The notes: generated by a model from the letters alone, not told the origin. A stretch of 64,000 nt of DNA from an uncultured virus (IMG/VR IMGVR_UViG_3300029920_000005) (IMGVR_UViG_3300029920_000005); one strand, 5' to 3'; counted from the stretch's first letter, positions 11,804 to 59,615 are shown. Program-made: numbers and translations.

Positions 11804-12556
11804 TCAGGTATTATTGGGGTTTCCAAAGAGAATATACACAAGGTGCGCCCGGCTGCGAGCCTTGTATTGCTTGATGATGCGGGCCACATGGCGCCGCACC
11901 GTCCTTGCGGTAATGCCGAGATTGGATGCTGTCTGAGTGTCGGATTGTCCGACGGCAATGCTGTCCGCTATTGACCGGTCCATATCCGTCAGCTCATACC
12001 GGAGGTCGCGTGGGGCGAGTACCCGCGAGGCGGCTGATGACATGTGCCGGTGCATCATGCCGATGATCTGACGCACCCCGGCATCCTCCTCCGCCCGCCG
12101 TCCTGCAAACGAAATGGTTACGCGGTGCGTGCCGTGGTCGTGTAAGTAGGTAAGGCCGTGCGTCATGTCGTGGCGCGCGCAGGCGGCGAGAAAGCGGGCA
12201 TGGCTCGGCGTGCGGCGATTTAATGTCGCCAAACTCTTGGACCAGAGGATCGGCGTATCCGGCTTCCCGTTGAGCACGGGGTCGACGTTCGCAAAATCCG
12301 CAGCCAGGTACAGGTCGATCCACTCGTCACTCCAGCCCACGTTCAGGATGTCGGCAAAAGTAGGGTGGTGACCGCCAAGCCCAGTAACCGCAATCAAAAT
12401 GGCCACATCACCGGAGAGTAGATGCTGTAGCCCGTGGCAAAATGCGCGCAGACCCTCCTTCTCCCGCGCCGTAGGTAGAGTCCCGGCCAGGCCCAGTACG
12501 GTATATGCCGTACCGGGCGGCACACTATTAAGTAGATCCATCGTTGTGCTGTCCAT
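11804..12556 (-). CDS. LuxR-family solo regulator (autoinducer-binding domain + HTH)
   Basis: W-IDL-Y, D-P, ILW, G in GWSDEWIDLYLAADFANVDPVL...ILWS...HGLT; C-terminal LuxR HTH LGITARTVRRHV. Confidence 0.9.
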   Translation of the reverse strand: MDSTTMDLLNSVPPGTAYTVLGLAGTLPTAREKEGLRAFCHGLQHLLSGDVAILIAVTGLGGHHPTFADILNVGWSDEWIDLYLAADFANVDPVLNGKPDTPILWSKSLATLNRRTPSHARFLAACARHDMTHGLTYLHDHGTHRVTISFAGRRAEEDAGVRQIIGMMHRHMSSAASRVLAPRDLRYELTDMDRSIADSIAVGQSDTQTASNLGITARTVRRHVARIIKQYKARSRAHLVYILFGNPNNT

Positions 12557-13944: not shown

Positions 13945-14523
13945 CTACATCCGGGCGAGGAGCTCTCGCTTTTTGTTTTCAAACTCATCGTCCGTCAGTA
14001 CGCCGGCGCTATGCAGATCCTTGAGGCCAGAAACGGCTTTCAAGATTGACTCGTGCGAGCCGCCTTTGGGTTCTTGCATTGCCGGGGCGACTTGGGCGTG
14101 CATTCCGGACGTCGAAGCTCGATCCAGAATGTAAGCGGTTGCATCACGGAATTTCTGCGCCATTGCCTTGGTGTTTAGAGAAACGCAGTTCGGCGCCTTT
14201 GCCGGGTCTGTTCCCTTGGCTTGAGACCAGTAGCTCTTGTCGGTATTTTGCATGCCACCCGCCGAAAGCTCGAAGTACCCGCTCAGGAGCCCATACTTCA
14301 CTTCGACCCCGGCCACCCGTGCGTATGGCAATTGAAACACGTTATTGCCAAAAAATTGCCCCGTCATGAATCCACCCTTCGCCACAATGACTCGATGGGT
14401 TGTGCAGATGAGCGCCTGCTTGAATGCGCCCTTTATCTTAATTATTACCTTTTCTTCGGCAGTCAGGAGTGTCTGCAGCTCTTTTTCAAGCCGGTCTGGA
14501 AGTTCTTCTATTAGATGGTCCAT
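13945..14523 (-). CDS. Bacterial PH-like domain protein with C-terminal SHOCT
   Basis: ICTTHRVIVAKGG...VEVKYGLLSG; LKDLHSAGVLTDDEFENKKRELL. Confidence 0.85.
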   Translation of the reverse strand: MDHLIEELPDRLEKELQTLLTAEEKVIIKIKGAFKQALICTTHRVIVAKGGFMTGQFFGNNVFQLPYARVAGVEVKYGLLSGYFELSAGGMQNTDKSYWSQAKGTDPAKAPNCVSLNTKAMAQKFRDATAYILDRASTSGMHAQVAPAMQEPKGGSHESILKAVSGLKDLHSAGVLTDDEFENKKRELLARM

Positions 14524-14603: not shown

Positions 14604-16199
14604 TTAATCGTCCACCGGCATAACGATCCGCGCATCAACCCCCGCATGCTTCTGCAAGAGATACAGTAGGTTGGCGCCGTCAAGTAACTCGATCGGTTTG
14701 TTGTTTGCAAACTCGAATGAAGCTTTGCCGTAACCGCTCGTCGCCACCAGGATACCCTTTGACGCGCCCTCGTTCTGCATGGTGCCAAATAAGTCACGAA
14801 CCGCGCTAACGCCAACGGTGTTTTTGTAGCGCTTGGCCTGGATGACAACCTTGCCGCCGAAGATCGGCCGCGGATCGTAGGCAATACAGTCCACGCCGCC
14901 GTCGCGCGATGCCTGTGTCAGCTTGGTTTCTAGCCCCATCTTCTGAAACAGATTTGTAATTAGCGACTCAAACTCACCCGGCGTCAGGTCCATTAAGTTT
15001 TGTCTTTCGTCTAACCCGGACAGAATATCGCTCTCAGTAATGAATCGCGGATCGTTCATGTTCAACTCAAGTATTGGTCGAACCGGGGCCAGCTCTGCCG
15101 GGTTGCGTGACACCGATGCGTTCAGCTGCTGCAGGCACGCCATAGGATCGACTCTACTCAGGTCAATAGCGGCGAATGTGTCTTTTGTGGTTCTGACAGA
15201 AACGACGCAATAACGAGTGTTCTGCCCTGTCGCCGGGTTGATGGTATCGACATACACACTGAGAACCGTGGTGTCGATATTGCCGTCAGTGTCAGCTTGA
15301 AATATCTCGTGCAGGCATCGCAGTGTAGTCTGCGCGATAATCGACGCGTAGATCTGCTTGCGCTGAGCGGCGAGTATCTTCGAATGGCTGAATGTGTCAG
15401 TAGCCTTTACGTGCTTCACTGCTTTTACATCAGGGGTAATCGTTTCAAATGGCGGAACATCATAGTTCACCACCAGTTGACGAGATTCAGGTGAGAAGAC
15501 AATGACGGAGGACTGCGGGAAGCCCTCAGGGAGCGAACTATGGGACAAAACAGCCGAGAAATAGCCTGAAATTGCGTCCGGGTTGTGCGCGCGAAGCGCC
15601 TTCGAGCACTCATCAATTGTTTTGTTGTGTTCGTCTGCTTGGCGTTTAATGCGGGCGACTTCTGCGGTGTATTCAGCCTTGCGTGCCTCTATTTTACCGA
15701 GTCGAAGCGCCTCGTCGGCCTCGTATTTTCTGAGCGCCTGCTGGCGTTTTCGGTCTGAAGCTTCCTTTTCCCGCTCGTACTTAGCTTTTCCTCCTAGCAA
15801 CATGAAAAACCAAGATGGGCGCGGGGTGACGTATTCCCAGTCTACGGGCGCGCGATTCGGCGTTTCAAGGTCTTCGAGATTTAGTACGGGAATATTGGGT
15901 TTGACAATCAGGCAGTCCAGTGAAAATTTCTTTCTACTGCGGATGCCGTCTGCAAGAATGCTGGATAGCTCTCCAATTCGAGCCTCCGCCTCTTCCGTCA
16001 TGCCGGCCGCTTCCTCCGCCCTTGACTCCAGGTAATCGCGTTTGCGCTCTTTTTCGTCGCGCGCGGAAGCTATTCTTGCTTCTCGTTCGAGTCTTGCCTG
16101 CTCCCGGGCGCTCCGGGCTGCATCCCTTGCTGACGCCCTTGCTTGACGTTCAAGCTCCCTGGATAACTGGTTAAGGCCACTAAAAAATCCCCTTGCCAC
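14604..16199 (-). CDS. Mrr-family restriction endonuclease with long N-terminal coiled coil
   Basis: EFESLITNLFQKMG...DGGVD...IQAKRY...GILVATS...ELLDG; GTG start after the terminator. Confidence 0.9.
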   Translation of the reverse strand: MARGFFSGLNQLSRELERQARASARDAARSAREQARLEREARIASARDEKERKRDYLESRAEEAAGMTEEAEARIGELSSILADGIRSRKKFSLDCLIVKPNIPVLNLEDLETPNRAPVDWEYVTPRPSWFFMLLGGKAKYEREKEASDRKRQQALRKYEADEALRLGKIEARKAEYTAEVARIKRQADEHNKTIDECSKALRAHNPDAISGYFSAVLSHSSLPEGFPQSSVIVFSPESRQLVVNYDVPPFETITPDVKAVKHVKATDTFSHSKILAAQRKQIYASIIAQTTLRCLHEIFQADTDGNIDTTVLSVYVDTINPATGQNTRYCVVSVRTTKDTFAAIDLSRVDPMACLQQLNASVSRNPAELAPVRPILELNMNDPRFITESDILSGLDERQNLMDLTPGEFESLITNLFQKMGLETKLTQASRDGGVDCIAYDPRPIFGGKVVIQAKRYKNTVGVSAVRDLFGTMQNEGASKGILVATSGYGKASFEFANNKPIELLDGANLLYLLQKHAGVDARIVMPVDD

Positions 16200-16254
16200 G
16201 GCTCGCCCCTTACTTGATGCAAAATAAAAGCCCGCATTTGCGGGCCTCCAGTAT

Positions 16255-16623
16255 TCAGTCTTTTTTCTTCGCGTCTTGCAGATCCATTGCTCGCTGCACA
16301 ATCTCAAAAATTGTAGCCCGGTCGAGGGCTGACAGTTTTGTCGCCAGATCATCAGGGGAGGACGCCTCAACAATCACATGACCGCCACCACTCAAAACCG
16401 GCGGGATGTCATCGTGCTGAACGTCCATCCACCCTTCTGATAGGTTGCGCACCACCTCAATCTTGCGCGCCATATCGTCGCCGATGTTCTTTTTCCCTGT
16501 CCTGATCCGGCTCAGGTAGTTCGATTCCACTTCTAAATCTTTTGCCAATTCCGCAGCTGCCCCTCGCGGCTCAACCAGCGATAGGAAGTTCTTCAGGCGG
16601 ATTTCTTTATTTGTGAGTCCCAT
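16255..16623 (-). CDS. cI: Phage repressor CI (HTH, no S24 peptidase domain)
   Basis: Divergent from cro across palindromic operators; NYLSRIRTGKKNIGDDMARKIE...GWMD; only 122 aa. Confidence 0.85.
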   Translation of the reverse strand: MGLTNKEIRLKNFLSLVEPRGAAAELAKDLEVESNYLSRIRTGKKNIGDDMARKIEVVRNLSEGWMDVQHDDIPPVLSGGGHVIVEASSPDDLATKLSALDRATIFEIVQRAMDLQDAKKKD

Positions 16624-20749: not shown

Positions 20750-20935
20750 GTGATCTGGCACCGGGTGACGGATCTGTGTATCGAGTCCGGCGCCTGGCGG
20801 ATTTTTCGATATCCGATGGGCGACCCGGAATATTTCGAATTGTGGTGCTGGCCGAAGTTTATCGGGCGGTTTGATACATCGGAACAAGCAAAGGGGAGTG
20901 CATTAAGTGGAGCAAAGCAATCAGCAGGAGGTTGA
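20750..20935 (+). CDS. Hypothetical protein
   Basis: 61 aa in the nin region. Confidence 0.45.
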   Translation: MIWHRVTDLCIESGAWRIFRYPMGDPEYFELWCWPKFIGRFDTSEQAKGSALSGAKQSAGG

Positions 20936-21251
20936 CCCGACTGGCACCGATCAGCACCAGCCCGGCGCAAAGTTGGACGCAGGCAAGGTACGGCCAGACC
21001 TGATCCTGTCCGGCATGCCGCGCGCGCTGCTGGCGGTCGCCCAGGTAGCCACGTTCGGCGCCGCGAAATACACAGAGGGCGGCTGGCAGGCTGTGCCGGA
21101 TGGAATCAAGCGCTACACCGCCGCTATGGATCGCCACCGTCTCAAAGAGACGTTCGAACCGGTTGATGCCGATTCGGGTATTGCCCATCAGGCGCACCTC
21201 GCATGGAACGCGCTGGCGCGGCTGGAATTGATGTTGCGGGAGGTTGTATGA
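20907..21251 (+). CDS. dATP/dGTP diphosphohydrolase domain protein (DUF5664-like)
   Basis: GAKLDAGK, FGAAKY..GGW, DADSGIAHQAHLAWNAL. Confidence 0.85.
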   Translation: MEQSNQQEVDPTGTDQHQPGAKLDAGKVRPDLILSGMPRALLAVAQVATFGAAKYTEGGWQAVPDGIKRYTAAMDRHRLKETFEPVDADSGIAHQAHLAWNALARLELMLREVV

Positions 21252-23180: not shown

Positions 23181-23290
23181 AAACATGTAGTCTGCAATTT
23201 TTGCGTCTACCAGAAATCAAACCCGCCAGCGCCAAGCGTTCGCGGGTTTGATTCATTCCAGCACCACACCAAATTCATAACCCCACATCT

Positions 23291-23479
23291 TCACCGGTGT
23301 GGGGTTTTTTGCATCTCAGTAATCAGCAACTGACGGATAGCTGCGGCACCGACTTCACCGGCCCACGCCTTCACATCGGGCGGCACTTTGACAGTGAGAG
23401 CGACGAGGCCAGCGGCTCCGTCTTCTGCCTTGCGGCCGGCGCCCGGTCGAGCGCCTCCGCGTTTTGGTTGTTCGGCCAT
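23291..23479 (-). CDS. Aca-like small DNA-binding protein (RGGARPGAGRK + RHH-like)
   Basis: Last gene of an antisense operon, after the AcrIC5-like gene. Confidence 0.7.
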   Translation of the reverse strand: MAEQPKRGGARPGAGRKAEDGAAGLVALTVKVPPDVKAWAGEVGAAAIRQLLITEMQKTPHR

Positions 23480-23480
23480 G

Positions 23481-23819
23481 TCAGTTCAGAACGAAGTCTT
23501 CGTCGAATTTTGCCTTGTGCGCAGCCATGTAGGCGTCGAGAAATTCTTGATCGGTCTCGACTGTGCCATGGATTTGCTCGCACAGCTCGTCGTCCATCAG
23601 CGCGCGCGCTGCGGCCATATCCACCGGCTTGCCATTGAGCAGTACGTCAGTAGCGACTTCGGTGACAACGATTTCGCTGGGTTCGCCCAGCCGTGCAACC
23701 ATGTCCGCTTCGGACTTGTAGCCAGCATCTTGCGCTGCGATATCACGGGCTTCCTGTGCGGTTTCGGCTTCGATGATGCCAAAGTCACATGCGTTTGCTA
23801 CGACGTTAAATGCTTTCAT
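23481..23819 (-). CDS. Two-domain anti-CRISPR: unknown 55-aa domain fused to an AcrIC5-like domain
   Basis: C-terminal LNGKPVDMAAARALMDDELCEQIH...TDQEFLDAYMAAHKAKFDEDF matches my recollection of AcrIC5 (LNG..ID..AA..LMD.EL...LH...DQEFLDAY..AH.AKF); AGGAG RBS. Confidence 0.8.
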   Translation of the reverse strand: MKAFNVVANACDFGIIEAETAQEARDIAAQDAGYKSEADMVARLGEPSEIVVTEVATDVLLNGKPVDMAAARALMDDELCEQIHGTVETDQEFLDAYMAAHKAKFDEDFVLN

Positions 23820-23860
23820 GATGCGCTCCTGAGTGAGTGGTGTTTCGTTCCGTCCTGCTA

Positions 23861-23896
23861 TGATTGAATAGTATACCAATCAAACAGGATCCGCAA
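23861..23896 (-). promoter_or_regulatory. acr promoter with inverted-repeat operator
   Basis: TTGCGG-17bp-TACTAT; TGATTG-N10-CAATCA straddles the -10. Confidence 0.75.
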
Positions 23897-24538: not shown

Positions 24539-25351
24539 ATGGCTAGAGAACTTACACCAAAACAGCAGAGATTCGTCGAAGAGTACCTGCTTGACCTTGA
24601 CCCAGAACAAGCGGCACTAAGGGCTGGGTACAGCCCAAGCGTGGCAAGGTCAAAGGCGTTTCAATGGGTAAGCAAAAGTAAGCAAAATCCCAGCAAGAAT
24701 ATTGCTGTTGCCGTGCAAAAAGCGATGCAAGCGCGCTCAGAAAAGACCGGCATTACAGCTGAGGCTGTGTTGGAGCGACTGTGGAATATTGCCACTGCCG
24801 ATCCGAATGGTCTGGTCGAATACCGCCGCAACTGCTGTCGGCACTGTTGGGGCGAAGACCATCTATTTCAGTGGACGGAAGGCGAGTTTACCGAGGCGCA
24901 GCGCAAGGCCGACGACAAAGGCGACGATCCCCCCGAAATTCAAGGTGGCTTTGGTTTCAATGCCACCCGCGTACCGCACCCCGAATGTCCAGAATGCGGT
25001 GGCGATGGACGCGGGCACGTTCACATCCACGACACGCGCAAGGTCAAAGGCGCCGCCCGTCTGATCTATGCCGGCGTAAAGCAAGGCAAGGATGGCACTG
25101 AGCTGAAGATCGTCGATCAATTATCGGCTCTGAAACAGGTTGCCGAGCACGTTGGATTGTTTCGCGACAAGGATGCGAATAGGCGGGCTCAGGAAGCGCA
25201 CGAATCACACATGGCGATTGCGGCCCTTGATGCGGAGACGAAACGCCTCGCCTTGGCTTCCCAAAAAACCACGGATCAATCGAGCGACGAAATGAGTTCT
25301 GAATACAGGTTGCCGGTCGATGAAGATATCCCCCAGAAACCAATCCTCTGA
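24539..25351 (+). CDS. terS: Terminase small subunit
   Basis: LTPKQQRFVEEYLLD...AALRAGYS; CRHCWG and CPECGGDG. Confidence 0.92.
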   Translation: MARELTPKQQRFVEEYLLDLDPEQAALRAGYSPSVARSKAFQWVSKSKQNPSKNIAVAVQKAMQARSEKTGITAEAVLERLWNIATADPNGLVEYRRNCCRHCWGEDHLFQWTEGEFTEAQRKADDKGDDPPEIQGGFGFNATRVPHPECPECGGDGRGHVHIHDTRKVKGAARLIYAGVKQGKDGTELKIVDQLSALKQVAEHVGLFRDKDANRRAQEAHESHMAIAALDAETKRLALASQKTTDQSSDEMSSEYRLPVDEDIPQKPIL

Positions 25352-53629: not shown

Positions 53630-53748
53630 TCCACGACATCCTCATTGCAGTCGGTGGTTTCGTCGGCGGCGTCATTGCGCTGGCCGTTGTTGGTCCGCTC
53701 GTAGCTGCGCTGTTCGGCGGCTGGGTTATGTGGAGGGGTAGCAAATGA
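53626..53748 (+). CDS. Small hydrophobic peptide (40 aa)
   Basis: MIHDILIAVGGFVGGVIALAVVGPLVAALFGGWVMWRGSK; ATGA overlaps on both sides. Confidence 0.6.
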   Translation: MIHDILIAVGGFVGGVIALAVVGPLVAALFGGWVMWRGSK

Positions 53749-54542
53749 GCAAAATCCGACTCGCATTCTCGGGGTCGGGCTTCCGGTTGGGGGCGCACAT
53801 CGGCGCCCTGAAAGCCGTGCTCGATGCCGGATATGACGTGGTTGAGGTCGCGGGCACGTCCGGTGGCTCGATCTGCGCCGCATTGTTTGCCGCCGGCATG
53901 CCGATTGTCGACATGGTTGAGCTCGTCTCTACGATGGACTGGTCGCCGCTGCTGACGTTCGATCCGTGGTCCGGTCTGCGCAATGGCGGCTACTGCTCGG
54001 GCGACAAGCTGCTGGCGTTTCTGCACGGTAAAACCGGTGGCAAAACGTTCGCCGAATTGTCGATCGACCTGAAAATTATCGCGTCCGACCTGGGCGGCGA
54101 AAAGCAGGTTGTATTCAGTAAGGCAACCACGCCTGACATGCCGATTGCCCTGGCCGCGCGCGCCAGCGCGTCGATCCCGTTCGTCTACACTCCGGTCAAA
54201 TATCAAGGCATGACCCTGGTGGATGGCGGGTGCTGTGACAACCTGCCCGCCGACGCACTGACGGTCGACGCCGCGCCGCGCCTCGGCGTTTATCTCCTGT
54301 CGGACGATCCGCCGGCTCAAAGCATGGATCTGGCCACGATGGCCGGGCGGGTGATCGATTTGATGTTGGCGAGCAATGAAGATTTGCATGTCGCCAGCGC
54401 AGAAAAATCCGGCGCGCGAATCGTGCGCGTTGAAACCGCGTACGCAAACTCGCTGGATCGAAATATGCCGGCGGCGATCCGTCAGCGCCTGTTTGATGAT
54501 GGATATGCAGCGGCCGACGCGGCACTGAAAGGCATGGCATGA
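53745..54542 (+). CDS. Patatin-like phospholipase
   Basis: GSGFRLG, GTSGG, DGG catalytic motifs. Confidence 0.93.
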   Translation: MSKIRLAFSGSGFRLGAHIGALKAVLDAGYDVVEVAGTSGGSICAALFAAGMPIVDMVELVSTMDWSPLLTFDPWSGLRNGGYCSGDKLLAFLHGKTGGKTFAELSIDLKIIASDLGGEKQVVFSKATTPDMPIALAARASASIPFVYTPVKYQGMTLVDGGCCDNLPADALTVDAAPRLGVYLLSDDPPAQSMDLATMAGRVIDLMLASNEDLHVASAEKSGARIVRVETAYANSLDRNMPAAIRQRLFDDGYAAADAALKGMA

Positions 54543-54889
54543 GCAAGCTGCGCGAAGTAGCCCCGGGCTTGATGCGGTTCAAGTGTCCGGGGTGCGGTGG
54601 CTTCCATGATATCCCGGTTCGGAGCGCGTCTGAGCCTGGCTCGCAATGGATCTGGAATGGCAGTGTCGACAGGCCGACCCTGACACCGAGCGTACTGGCT
54701 CGATCCGGTCACTACATAGACCCGGGCAGTTGCTGGTGCAAGTACTACGCAGAGCATCCGGAAAAGACTCCGCATTTCAAGTGCGGAATCTGTCACTCAT
54801 TCGTCACTGACGGATATATCCAATATCTGACCGATTGCACCCACGCGCTCGCAGGCCAGACTGTAGCGCTTCCTGACATCGAGGAGTGA
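54539..54889 (+). CDS. DUF6527-like Cys-rich protein
   Basis: CPGC, WNG...PTLTPSVL, CHSFVTDG.IQYL.DCTH. Confidence 0.75.
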   Translation: MSKLREVAPGLMRFKCPGCGGFHDIPVRSASEPGSQWIWNGSVDRPTLTPSVLARSGHYIDPGSCWCKYYAEHPEKTPHFKCGICHSFVTDGYIQYLTDCTHALAGQTVALPDIEE

Positions 54890-55161
54890 ATGTGAAAAAG
54901 TACAAAATCAAAAGAATGGCCGCCACGCTGGTGCTGCTGCTGATCGGCTTCGCGGTCGGCTGGGACGTGGGCGCATGGCGCGCACCAGTGGTGCGGACGG
55001 TCATCCGGTTCGTGCAGCCACTGCCGACACCGTCGTGTCCGGTCATTAAGTCAGCGGCGACGCCGGCTAAGCATGCCCACAGGCACCATCGGCATCATCA
55101 TTGGCGCGCGGTCGCGTGCGTCAATCCGCCCGGCTCAGCGCCAGCCGTATCCCCTCGCTGA
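54886..55161 (+). CDS. Membrane-anchored small protein
   Basis: N-terminal TM, His-rich tail. Confidence 0.5.
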   Translation: MNVKKYKIKRMAATLVLLLIGFAVGWDVGAWRAPVVRTVIRFVQPLPTPSCPVIKSAATPAKHAHRHHRHHHWRAVACVNPPGSAPAVSPR

Positions 55162-55504
55162 CATTCCCGTCACCCAGGCGCTTCGCTGCCTCAAGGCTCG
55201 CGGCGTCAAGGTACACATTGACCCGCTTGCCCCCCTCCATCTCTGCTGGCCGCCCGACTGTAGGCCACTCGATTTCGTCCAGCTTGTCGCGCCAGTAGTC
55301 CGCCGTGCCGGGCGTGCGGTCAAAGCGGTGGAACGCGATCTGGCGATTGCTATAGGTCAGTACGGCGGCGAGCTTCTGCCCGTCGAGGTCGCTCCGATTG
55401 ACGAGCGCGACAAAAGCCTCGGAGGCGGCGCCTTGGTCAGCCGTAATGGTCTTCGACTCAGGCAGTACCTGCTGATCGAAGGTGCGCAAATAGACTCGAT
55501 ACAT
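55121..55504 (-). CDS. Aca-like regulator with C-terminal RHH
   Basis: GRP....GKRVNVYLD.......LGDGNVSEGIRLAL; last gene of the operon. Confidence 0.7.
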   Translation of the reverse strand: MYRVYLRTFDQQVLPESKTITADQGAASEAFVALVNRSDLDGQKLAAVLTYSNRQIAFHRFDRTPGTADYWRDKLDEIEWPTVGRPAEMEGGKRVNVYLDAASLEAAKRLGDGNVSEGIRLALSRAD

Positions 55505-55551: not shown

Positions 55552-55833
55552 TTATTTTTGAGTCGCAGCTTTTGCGAAAGCCTTCCCGTACCGGATCGCT
55601 GCGGCGGCATCAAAATTCGCGCCTCCCTCACTCAAAAATTCAAGCTGCGCTTCCAGTGCGGCCTCGTCGACCGCGTACCCGCTTTCGATTTGAGCCTCAG
55701 CCGCGTACTGCCCGGCCAGCTGCTCGGCGGTAAATTCGATGCCCTGCATGCCCTCGGTAAATGGCGCATCGTTGATCAGGTCTACTACGGCGGCAAAGCT
55801 TGCGGCGCTGCGGATCGATAGGCTGGCGTACAT
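55552..55833 (-). CDS. AcrIF6-like anti-CRISPR
   Basis: VVDLIND...EQLAGQYA.EA...LEAQLEFLSEGGANFDAAAAI resembles my recollection of AcrIF6 (IIEAINND...EIAGYYAWDA...AHLEVLEERGAKIDRDAAI). Confidence 0.7.
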   Translation of the reverse strand: MYASLSIRSAASFAAVVDLINDAPFTEGMQGIEFTAEQLAGQYAAEAQIESGYAVDEAALEAQLEFLSEGGANFDAAAAIRYGKAFAKAATQK

Positions 55834-55917
55834 GCGATTCTCCAAATTTCGTGCGGCATATGCCGCGCTGCCTGTTCGGCAGTGAAGAGGAGGCCCGGTT
55901 TCCCGGGCTGTTTTCGA

Positions 55918-56259
55918 TTATTGGGTTACTTCGGTGGCGACGATCTCGCTGGGGGCGCCAAGCTGCGCAACCATGTCGTCTTCGGACTTGTAACCAGCGT
56001 CTTGTGCTGCGATATCGCGGGCCTGTTGAGCGGTTTCGGCTTCGATCAGGCCGAAATCGCAGGCGTTTGCCGTGACCTGCCAGGTCTTCATTTGATTACC
56101 AAGAGCGACGACGCCGTCTTCGTCAACGATGCGCAGACCGCGCCAGCCCAGATTGCTTTCCAGCTCCGCCAATGCCGATTTTGCTTCTGCCAGGGTTTCG
56201 AAATCACCTTCAGCTACGGGTTCGAACTGAAAGCTGGTGCGCGATTGAATGGTGAACAT
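55918..56259 (-). CDS. Two-domain acidic protein, candidate anti-CRISPR
   Basis: First gene of the operon; its C-terminal 55 aa are 45/55 identical to the N-terminus of 23481-23819. Confidence 0.75.
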   Translation of the reverse strand: MFTIQSRTSFQFEPVAEGDFETLAEAKSALAELESNLGWRGLRIVDEDGVVALGNQMKTWQVTANACDFGLIEAETAQQARDIAAQDAGYKSEDDMVAQLGAPSEIVATEVTQ

Positions 56260-56333
56260 GATGGCGATCCTTTATCTGATCTTCCCGGAACCCGCCGGTG
56301 CGGTGGATGGTGTTGTTTGCCGTCCATGAGTTA

Positions 56334-56377
56334 ATTATATACACACTAAATTATTTTGCAAGAATTATGTATGTATA
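56334..56377 (-). promoter_or_regulatory. acr promoter with inverted-repeat operator
   Basis: TTGCAA-16bp-TATAAT; TATACACAC (56338-56346) and GTATGTATA (56369-56377) form an inverted pair. Confidence 0.75.
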
Positions 56378-56400
56378 AAACAAAATATTCTGAGGTGCGC

Positions 56401-58439: not shown

Positions 58440-59615
58440 CTATTTCTTCAATCGCTGCTGGTCTAGAAAATCAGACCAGTCCTGCATCATCGTGCGGCGC
58501 TCATCCATGTATTGCGCGTGGTTGTACGCCGCTTTGACCTTGTTGCGCTCCAAGTGCGCCAGCTGGATCTCGATCACTTTTTCGGGGTAGCCGAGCTCAT
58601 GCAGGATTGTTGAGGCGGTCGAGCGAAAGCCGTGGCCAGAGACAACGCCTTTGAAGCCGATTAGCTCAATGAGCCGGTTGATGGTCGTGCCGGTAATACT
58701 GTCATCTGGGCGTCGCGTATTGGGGAATACGAACGGCCTGCCTCCGTGGAACTTCTGCATGTGGTGAAGAATGGTAATGGCCTGGCGCGACAGTGGGACA
58801 ATATGATCAGTGCCCATCTTCATTTTGTCACCGGGGATGCGCCACGTCTGGTCGTCCAGACTGAAGTCATCCCACGTGGCGCGGCGGATCTCGATGGTGC
58901 GAACAAAGGTCAGCAGCATGAACTGTGCGGCGTTTTTTGCCGGGCCATAGCCCTGATAAGCATCGAGCGCGCGCAGGAACTGAGGCAAGTCATCAAGCCG
59001 CAGCGGTTTATGGTGACTGACCGGTGCTCGCTTCACGACACCGCCAAGCGGTGCCGTTGGGTCGTTGTCGCAGCGCAGAGTTGTTATACCGTGCCTGAAT
59101 GCCGCGCCGGCCCACTGGCGCGCATTCCGCGCAACAACCGGCGCGCCCCGTTTTAGTATCGCGTTGATCAGATCAAGACATTGCGCTGAAGTAACGGACC
59201 GAATCGGCAAGTCGCCAATACCGGGATAAACGTCAGCCGCCAGTGTTTTCTCTACTTGACGTTTGTATGGAGCGCTCCAGTGCTGGTTGGCTGCGATCCA
59301 CTCCTCTGCGACCATGCGGAATGTATTCTGATCTTGGTTGATTTGCCGGGCTATGGCTGCTTTTTTTGCCGTGTTCGGACTCTGTCCCGATGCCACCAGT
59401 GCGCGCGCCGCTTCCAGTAATTTGCGCGCATCTGCCAGGCCGACGGAGGGGTATTCTCCAATGGTAAACATACTGGCCTTTCCGTCCAGCCGGAAGCGGT
59501 AGCGCCATAGTTTTTGGCCGGATGGTCGTATCTCGACGCATAGCCCCTTGTGGTCAGCCAAGCGGTAGACCTTATCGGTCGGTTTGGCCTGTCGAATCTT
59601 GGTGTCTGACAGCAT
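58440..59615 (-). CDS. int: Tyrosine integrase (P4-like, N-terminal arm-binding domain)
   Basis: MLSDTKIRQAKP...; catalytic R (FVRT), HGFR, LAH, AAYN. Confidence 0.95.
   Translation of the reverse strand: MLSDTKIRQAKPTDKVYRLADHKGLCVEIRPSGQKLWRYRFRLDGKASMFTIGEYPSVGLADARKLLEAARALVASGQSPNTAKKAAIARQINQDQNTFRMVAEEWIAANQHWSAPYKRQVEKTLAADVYPGIGDLPIRSVTSAQCLDLINAILKRGAPVVARNARQWAGAAFRHGITTLRCDNDPTAPLGGVVKRAPVSHHKPLRLDDLPQFLRALDAYQGYGPAKNAAQFMLLTFVRTIEIRRATWDDFSLDDQTWRIPGDKMKMGTDHIVPLSRQAITILHHMQKFHGGRPFVFPNTRRPDDSITGTTINRLIELIGFKGVVSGHGFRSTASTILHELGYPEKVIEIQLAHLERNKVKAAYNHAQYMDERRTMMQDWSDFLDQQRLKK

Follow-up and report, generated by a model that had tools for sequence, protein, structure and literature searches.

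A small acidic module fused to AcrIC5 and kept twice in one prophage: a candidate family of anti-CRISPR proteins

The 64,000 nucleotides from an uncultured virus that were analysed here (the window) encode the same 55-residue acidic module at two sites. The module is conserved, under purifying selection and borne by mobile elements. Through a common polypeptide or a common operon it is tied to AcrIC4, AcrIC5, the N-terminal part of AcrIC6, AcrIC7, AcrIE5 and the regulator Aca10. That it serves anti-defence of some kind appears likely. Moderate confidence can be placed in the narrower statement that it represents a new, self-sufficient family of small acidic anti-CRISPR (Acr) proteins, most likely directed against type I systems. 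An earlier note on this DNA had proposed the module as a candidate inhibitor; this interpretation is supported, and the support comes from association.

The two copies and the reading frames that contain them are:

23481..23819 (stop codon included), minus strand: open reading frame of 112 residues, the first 55 of which are the module
23655..23819, minus strand: module copy A, residues 1-55 of the 112-residue protein
55918..56259, minus strand: open reading frame of 113 residues that contains the second copy
55927..56091, minus strand: module copy B, residues 57-111 of the 113-residue protein

BLASTP aligns the two proteins with 45 of 55 residues identical (E 2e-31), precisely the count given in the earlier note, and the similarity ends exactly at the module borders. 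Each copy begins with its own methionine, as had been stated. The module had also been called acidic, and both copies have a net charge of -7.5 and a pI of about 4.1. In the DNA, 35 of 165 bases differ. By the method of Nei and Gojobori, about 20.3 of these changes are synonymous and about 14.7 non-synonymous (dS 0.98, dN 0.125, dN/dS 0.13). The many synonymous differences and the selection claimed before are thus borne out: the copies are under purifying selection in the minus-strand frame. The 60-nt flanks are identical at 15/60 and 12/60 positions, which is chance level. From the DNA divergence and the chance-level flanks it follows that the copies are old and separately embedded and do not stem from a recent duplication.

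The strand needs a comment. A crude gene call based on GC3 favoured antisense reading frames on the plus strand (23388..23867 and 55882..56334), which are long and have a slightly higher GC3. Homology and the substitution pattern overrule this call and settle the minus strand for both copies. Because of these overlapping antisense frames, an automatic gene caller could pick the wrong strand at both fusion genes.

The window is one lambdoid-style prophage, running from early genes via terminase and tail genes to the integrase. On the left are early genes for a C5 methylase, RdgC, a CII-like protein, Rha and NinB. The small and large terminase genes start at 24539 and are followed by portal, scaffold, baseplate, tail fibre and lysozyme. 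Behind the structural genes there is an accessory block (patatin, DUF6527, ParB-like nuclease, ParA), which ends in the integrase (58440-59615). With unrelated flanks and both loci in this single prophage, the claim of an independent fusion, twice in one phage, holds.

Further genes of this prophage may be mentioned in passing. A type IV methyl-directed restriction enzyme of 589 residues (14604-16373, minus strand; PADLOC mREase_IV, E 3.1e-96; Pfam Mrr_cat) lies beside a SHOCT/bacterial-PH protein (13945-14523, minus strand); the two have the look of a defence gene carried by the prophage. A patatin-like phospholipase (53745-54542, plus strand; Pfam E 5.2e-31, with a weak PADLOC match to a phospholipase effector) shares a 4-nt overlap with the gene of a DUF6527 zinc-ribbon protein (54539-54889, plus strand). 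Located just upstream of locus 2, the two genes may act together in defence or abortive infection. The prophage also encodes a LuxR-type regulator (11804-12556, minus strand), which has an autoinducer-binding domain and may let the phage sense quorum signals of its host. Among the Nin-region genes, a dATP/dGTP diphosphohydrolase N-terminal domain is encoded (20907-21251, plus strand; PF18909, E 6.6e-24); a companion gene for base modification was not seen within the window.

Locus 1 is a two-gene minus-strand cassette directly before the terminase genes. Apart from copy A, its features are:

23861..23886, no strand assigned: palindrome TGATTG-N10-CAATCA, which covers a -10-like hexamer TATACT, upstream of copy A
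23493..23639, minus strand: AcrIC5 domain, residues 61-109 of the 112-residue protein (Pfam PF22147, PDB 7YHR_A)
23291..23479, minus strand: basic protein of 62 residues, pI 10.2, with the N-terminal arm G-x-GAGR-K/P, in the aca position; putative repressor
23279..23306, no strand assigned (scored on the plus strand): G+C-rich, terminator-like hairpin at the end of the 62-residue gene, closing the operon

Here the module is indeed N-terminal to an AcrIC5-like domain, as the earlier note had it. Residues 61-109 match the Pfam AcrIC5 profile with E 4.6e-17 and 62 bits (cut-off 27), and the protein matches the solved AcrIC5 chain with E 8.3e-11. Judged by its sequence, the AcrIC5 domain is genuine. 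Its profile matches neither residues 1-55 nor the protein that contains copy B. Like the module, AcrIC5 is a small, highly acidic phage protein, and in the window it is covalently joined to copy A. What Pfam and the PDB match, however, is limited to residues 58-109; the module is separate and differs in predicted secondary structure. The exact 112-residue protein is present on 61 contigs.

The start codon of the fusion gene (ATG at 23819) is preceded, at a distance of 6 nt, by AGGAG, and the gene of the basic protein starts 1 nt past its stop. The palindrome upstream may serve both genes of the operon as operator and promoter; it was not among the sites given by the promoter scan. For the basic protein, no match was found in Pfam, NCBIfam or the PDB, profile search included, and its relative in locus L004 yields a weak Pfam match to MobC_2 only. 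Its AlphaFold2 model is of low confidence (pLDDT 62) and shows a disordered basic arm followed by two helices at 34-58. The protein may have a ribbon-helix-helix fold.

Locus 2 has a different composition. Besides copy B it comprises:

56334..56361, minus strand: sigma-70-type promoter TTGCAA-16-TATAAT (10/12), upstream of the 113-residue gene
56092..56259, minus strand: acidic N-terminal domain of 56 residues, charge -6.5, fused before copy B, without family match
55552..55845, minus strand: acidic protein of 97 residues, charge -8.2, second gene, with hairpins on both sides
55121..55504, minus strand: protein of 127 residues, last gene, with a ribbon-helix-helix-like C-terminus
55145-55228, minus strand: the ribbon-helix-helix-like motif, residues 93-120 of the 127-residue protein, detected by BLASTP to protein P0003

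The order is promoter, 113-residue fusion, 97-residue protein and 127-residue protein, with hairpins between the genes. The promoter sits within an A+T-rich imperfect inverted repeat (56335-56380). As described before, the module is here C-terminal to another small acidic domain. The latter matches no family in Pfam, PHROGs or NCBIfam and no phage record, and its relatives are confined to its own cluster. The 97-residue protein likewise finds no family and no phage match, and its relatives, too, are those of its own cluster. The 127-residue protein matches PHROG 7830 weakly. Its motif shares 17 of 28 residues with the DNA-binding part of the module fusion P0003 (E 7e-9). The earlier note had called both loci acr operons. 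For locus 1, with its AcrIC5 fusion, the term stands. Since no known Acr is present at locus 2, the term derives there only from the module itself and the ribbon-helix-helix-like last gene.

The module is not a peculiarity of this prophage. A phmmer search of 1.84 billion representatives yielded 126 proteins at E<=1e-3, 11 of those at E<=1e-10, each representing a cluster at 50% identity. Another 11 short relatives came from a word-indexed search; their names are all uninformative. From an alignment of 52 short members an HMM was built and used to classify 137 family proteins. P0005 proved to be a false positive of phmmer, a collagen-like repeat protein that the family HMM missed. The nearly invariant core of the alignment consists of G14, A18, A24, A29, G33 and Y34, and the consensus reads ARD-x-x-A-x-DAGY-x-SE-x-DM. 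AlphaFold2, fed with the same 52 sequences, predicts a beta-beta-alpha-alpha-beta arrangement with a pLDDT of 91.6 (strands 2-8 and 11-18, helices 21-31 and 37-44, strand 50-54). The module is a real protein family and, according to this model, folds independently.

Pfam, PHROGs, NCBIfam and PADLOC contain nothing that matches the module, and neither single-sequence phmmer nor a profile found a sequence relative in the PDB (2026 copy). Foldseek found no PDB match for the model at E<=0.001. An exhaustive fold search with VIA ranked PurS first (Z 5.3), with AcrIE2 (Z 3.8), T7 Gp2 (Z 3.2) and ClpS (Z 3.1) further down, all within the noise band stated for the tool. AcrIE2 (7CHQ), the best Acr in this comparison, is thus a weak and noise-level likeness: rmsd 3.2 over 55 residues, 14% sequence identity and a chain of 87 residues. 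In the BFVD the fold recurs only in small phage proteins that are unnamed or uncharacterised (best TM 0.80, 31% identity), and in the ESM Atlas only in unnamed clusters (scores <=0.84). A double-stranded RNA-binding identity was considered and dropped. P0126 was the only protein to match that motif (PF00035; 20.6 bits against a cut-off of 23), the module profile met the corresponding domain of PKR with E 0.17, and the predicted topology lacks the N-terminal helix.

The literature was equally silent. A table that lists about 100 published Acrs with their sequences, up to about 2022 (Data S1 of PMC10799925), does not contain any of the motifs DAGY, ARDL, ARDA, ARDI and SEADM. There, AGY occurs in unrelated contexts only (AcrIF6, AcrIIA25 and AcrIIC1). 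Full-text searches of the literature with the module motifs gave no match, and those under Acr names of later date gave none either. The earlier statement that the module matches no named Acr therefore agrees with Pfam, the PDB sequences and these look-ups. We see no evidence of its being known and consider it new by sequence; EVADES (268 anti-defence proteins), dbAPIS, Anti-CRISPRdb or the Acrs described after about 2022 may hold a relative.

In isolate-type collections the module is rare. With tblastn, 50,697 phage records gave a single match, in two pieces, to an uncultured Caudoviricetes, and 72,556 plasmids gave none. In the order that contains Candidatus Accumulibacter, 3 of 401 genomes have it, which is a rare and patchy distribution. 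Two hosts of module loci have names: Candidatus Accumulibacter conexus and Candidatus Aalborgicola. One carrier genome, G003, combines a module locus with both a type I-C and a type I-F system. A complex prediction for the module (alignment A6) with Cas8c of G003 returned 'no answer' (score 0.00); it was run without controls and is uninformative on binding. In another carrier genome, G061, no Cas1 or Cas8c match was found. The module gene of G061 (L016:1468-1746, minus strand) follows a 204-residue protein that resembles a RES-domain toxin by eye, and a 248-residue protein comes before that.

The family proteins differ widely in architecture. By HMM classification, 77 of the 137 stand alone, i.e., extend beyond the module by less than 35 residues at each end. 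A partner is attached C-terminally in 42, N-terminally in 12 and on both sides in 2; three proteins contain two module copies. With 56 proteins thus partnered, the module well deserves to be called modular. Altogether, 58 partner stretches of at least 35 residues were counted. For 46 of them no relative turned up within the set; the remaining ones fall into groups of 5, 3, 2 and 2.

The earlier note had suggested to look for linkage of the homologues to acr and aca genes. Both kinds of linkage were found. AcrIC5 is the partner not only in the window but also in P0082 (E 9.3e-12) and P0139 (E 1.6e-15), and AcrIC4 is the partner in P0043 (PDB 8DFO_M, E 1.9e-17). The next two links were drawn by motif look-up in the table of published Acrs and by comparison by eye. 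P0032 and P0053 have AcrIC7-like N-terminal halves with roughly 40% identity as judged by eye, and their motifs DAWDRC and GAEIE occur in that table only in the AcrIC7 row; a search of the phage collection for P0053 found no record. The N-terminal 40 residues of P0027 resemble the AcrIC6 N-terminus by eye, and PAATK and RWVR are found only in the AcrIC6 row. In L050 and L053, the part resembling the AcrIC6 N-terminus is encoded as a separate gene that overlaps the module stop. A full-length AcrIE5 homologue of 62 residues lies 73 nt upstream in L046 and L056 (9UPS_A, E 6.1e-7).

A further link comes from a protein without the module. P0141 is a natural chimera of AcrIE4 and AcrIC5 (Pfam AcrF31, E 5.1e-24, and AcrIC5, E 3.5e-17; 7VZM_A, E 9.4e-15, and 7YHR_A, E 1.8e-11 in the PDB). 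A proven Acr thus fills the very slot that in the window protein belongs to the module. In P0141, as in AcrIE4-F7 (7VZM), two small acidic inhibitor modules share one polypeptide of about 110-120 residues, and the 112-residue protein of the window has the same layout, AcrIC5 making up its C-terminal half. The difference is that the N-terminal module has no sequence similarity to AcrIE4 or AcrIF7 in PDB searches.

Some further observations belong to this context. AcrIC5 itself is a promiscuous C-terminal module: apart from P0141, it is joined in P0144 to a 113-residue part of no known family. P0140, a relative of the 112-residue protein, has a divergent N-terminal part that looks module-like by eye. 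A C-terminal partner of about 45 residues recurs, which by eye starts with W-x-x-W-E/V-D-G and ends with ARALG-V/I-D/E-VSE-x-LNV. It matches no family and is a candidate for a further inhibitor domain. It was seen in P0031 and P0010 and at these positions:

L033:459-767: recurrent partner of about 45 residues
L046:3501-3800: the same partner
L056:1210-1509: the same partner
L057:2139-2501: the same partner

Directly upstream of the module gene of P0042, a pentapeptide-repeat protein of 97 residues is encoded (L029:3172-3465, plus strand; Pfam E 1.2e-22). Pentapeptide-repeat proteins can mimic DNA, and this one may therefore be an anti-defence candidate. P0042 itself has a tail that resembles AcrIF7, but at E 0.064 over 23 residues this similarity is weak and was not counted as a link. 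A 75-residue gene in L028, taken tentatively as AcrIF9-like, was discarded, as it has no PDB match.

As to aca genes, in five distinct loci (L009, L010, L033, L034 and L047) a helix-turn-helix gene of the Aca10 family follows directly after the module. A profile of the five sequences matches chain 7XI5_A with E 2.5e-29 (profile positions 13-69, chain residues 3-59). According to the available text of PMC9410881, 7XI5 is Aca10, the repressor of the acrIC7-acrIC6-aca10 operon, and its operator comprises 21 bp. In four of the five loci, but not in L033, a palindrome of 17-19 bp with a single central base was found upstream of the module, either at a sigma-70-like promoter or just behind it. By analogy, these palindromes recall the Aca10 operator.

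As far as PMC9410881 and PMC7913775 describe it, the operon of Pseudomonas citronellolis is short, has a strong promoter and a palindromic operator and places Aca10 last. The five module loci are likewise closed by an Aca10 homologue, and AcrIC7 and the N-terminal part of AcrIC6, both from that operon, recur as the fusion partners mentioned above. The first gene, however, is the module, not AcrIC7. The window loci deviate further in that they do not end in Aca10 but in the 62-residue basic protein and the ribbon-helix-helix-like protein, respectively. On plasmids, regulators of the Aca10 family were found in 97 records of the plasmid collection, 63 of them from Klebsiella and mostly conjugative; Aca10-controlled cassettes hence reach well beyond Pseudomonas.

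Other regulators are also involved. The basic family with the 'G-x-GAGR-P/K' arm (62-66 residues) occurs at locus 1 of the window and in L004, L011, L054, L028, L060, L061 and L042. In L020, an HTH_3 protein overlaps the module stop (Pfam E 1.2e-9). Two of the six small-regulator families are also fused to the module, and P0003, P0027 and P0109 join it to a small DNA-binding part. Beyond the five Aca10 loci, other small regulators lie near the module in 12 more of the 45 distinct loci. One of the six families is thus present within 800 nt on the same strand in 17 of the 45, a count that is partly circular, since the seed regulators were drawn from the same loci. In the remaining 28 none of the six was found within that distance and on that strand. 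Many neighbours are there ordinary early genes (Sak, ERF, NinG, antirepressor, small terminase) or genes of no known family.

An Acr with a built-in regulator would not be without precedent: AcrIIA1 and AcrIF24 are of this kind, and AcrIF25 has a ribbon-helix-helix part, according to the available text of PMC13551039 and PMC9410881. P0003, P0027 and P0109 resemble them. A recent precedent for a ribbon-helix-helix regulator in the aca position is Aca14, again as far as PMC13551039 describes it, and non-helix-turn-helix regulators similarly occupy this position at module loci. Compared with the described Aca families other than Aca14, the regulators of the module loci match Aca10 only.

How does all this add up? 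The fusions to AcrIC4, AcrIC5, AcrIC7 and the AcrIC6 N-terminus, the adjacent AcrIE5 homologue and Aca10 in five loci strengthen the reading as an Acr. The acidity, the rarity and patchiness and the swapping of regulators were counted in its favour, too. Against it we counted the 28 loci without any of the six regulator families, many of whose neighbours are ordinary early genes, the missing fold likeness to a known Acr above noise, and G061, where the module gene comes after a RES-toxin-like gene and neither Cas1 nor Cas8c was matched.

The inhibitor could of course be aimed at something else. The module would then counteract a defence system other than CRISPR, for instance as a DNA-mimic-type inhibitor of a restriction or nuclease defence that shares islands and regulators with acr genes. 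We give this reading a small chance. The size and charge of the module would suit it, SAM methyltransferases lie downstream in L071 and L074, the pentapeptide-repeat protein lies upstream in L029, and a gene upstream in L011 matches Lar weakly (22 bits; the cut-off is 28.6). Moreover, Aca-controlled operons also hold anti-defence genes other than Acrs, according to the available text of PMC13551039. The restriction-related neighbours, however, are weak or generic, and all identifiable partners, as well as the one identifiable inhibitor neighbour, are type I Acrs.

The diversity of the partners admits still another view: the module might be a helper and not an inhibitor, i.e., a domain for dimerisation, solubility or stability, an adaptor through which the partners reach the same host factor, or a repressor co-factor. 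More than 50 unrelated partners are extraordinary and keep this idea alive; the strongly conserved core motif and the direct fusions to DNA-binding parts are compatible with it. A mere helper should hardly be encoded so often by a gene with its own start and stop, as the 77 stand-alone proteins are, and it would not be expected in a slot where AcrIE4, a proven inhibitor, can replace it before AcrIC5. In L011, L020, L009 and L010, finally, the module is the sole gene before the regulator, which implies a function of its own. The helper is therefore rather unlikely.

A related and equally doubtful idea sees the module as a 'hub' domain, which either binds broadly to a feature common to class 1 effector complexes or acts as a potentiator that docks, stabilises or delivers the fused inhibitor. 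It would explain why one conserved unit of 55 residues is joined to so many unrelated partners. If true, these partners and the two acidic proteins of locus 2 would be a ready list of inhibitor candidates. That the module is some unrelated small early protein, be it a host-takeover factor that binds RNA polymerase or a protease or be it a lysogeny factor, and owes its acr links to mere clustering, is very improbable: many of its contexts are generic early or accessory phage regions, and uncharacterised phage proteins of BFVD share its fold, but the weak similarity to T7 Gp2 and ClpS lies within noise, and clustering hardly explains fusion to four Acr families together with Aca10 in five loci.

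If we adhere to the module as an anti-CRISPR protein, the following scenario can be envisaged. The gene would be transcribed early from a strong promoter and then be shut off by the DNA-binding protein encoded last, i.e., the 62-residue basic protein at locus 1, the 127-residue protein at locus 2 and Aca10 elsewhere. The product may work alone or joined to another inhibitor in a chimeric protein. It would bind a subunit of the Cas effector directly and independently of the fused partner, and thereby block binding of the target DNA or recruitment of Cas3. Within a chimera, it would contribute a second specificity or contact. The AcrIC5 fusion of the window may thus, like AcrIE4-F7, act on two sites or on two subtypes.

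To our knowledge, few Acrs have been described from environmental phages of the Betaproteobacteria type. If the module inhibits CRISPR-Cas, it would add a widespread family, 126 clusters, from just these phages. Its partners would offer a guilt-by-fusion route to further inhibitors, the more so as most of them have no relative among the rest. And the basic 'GAGRP' proteins, together with the ribbon-helix-helix-like ones, would widen the known regulators of acr genes beyond the helix-turn-helix type.
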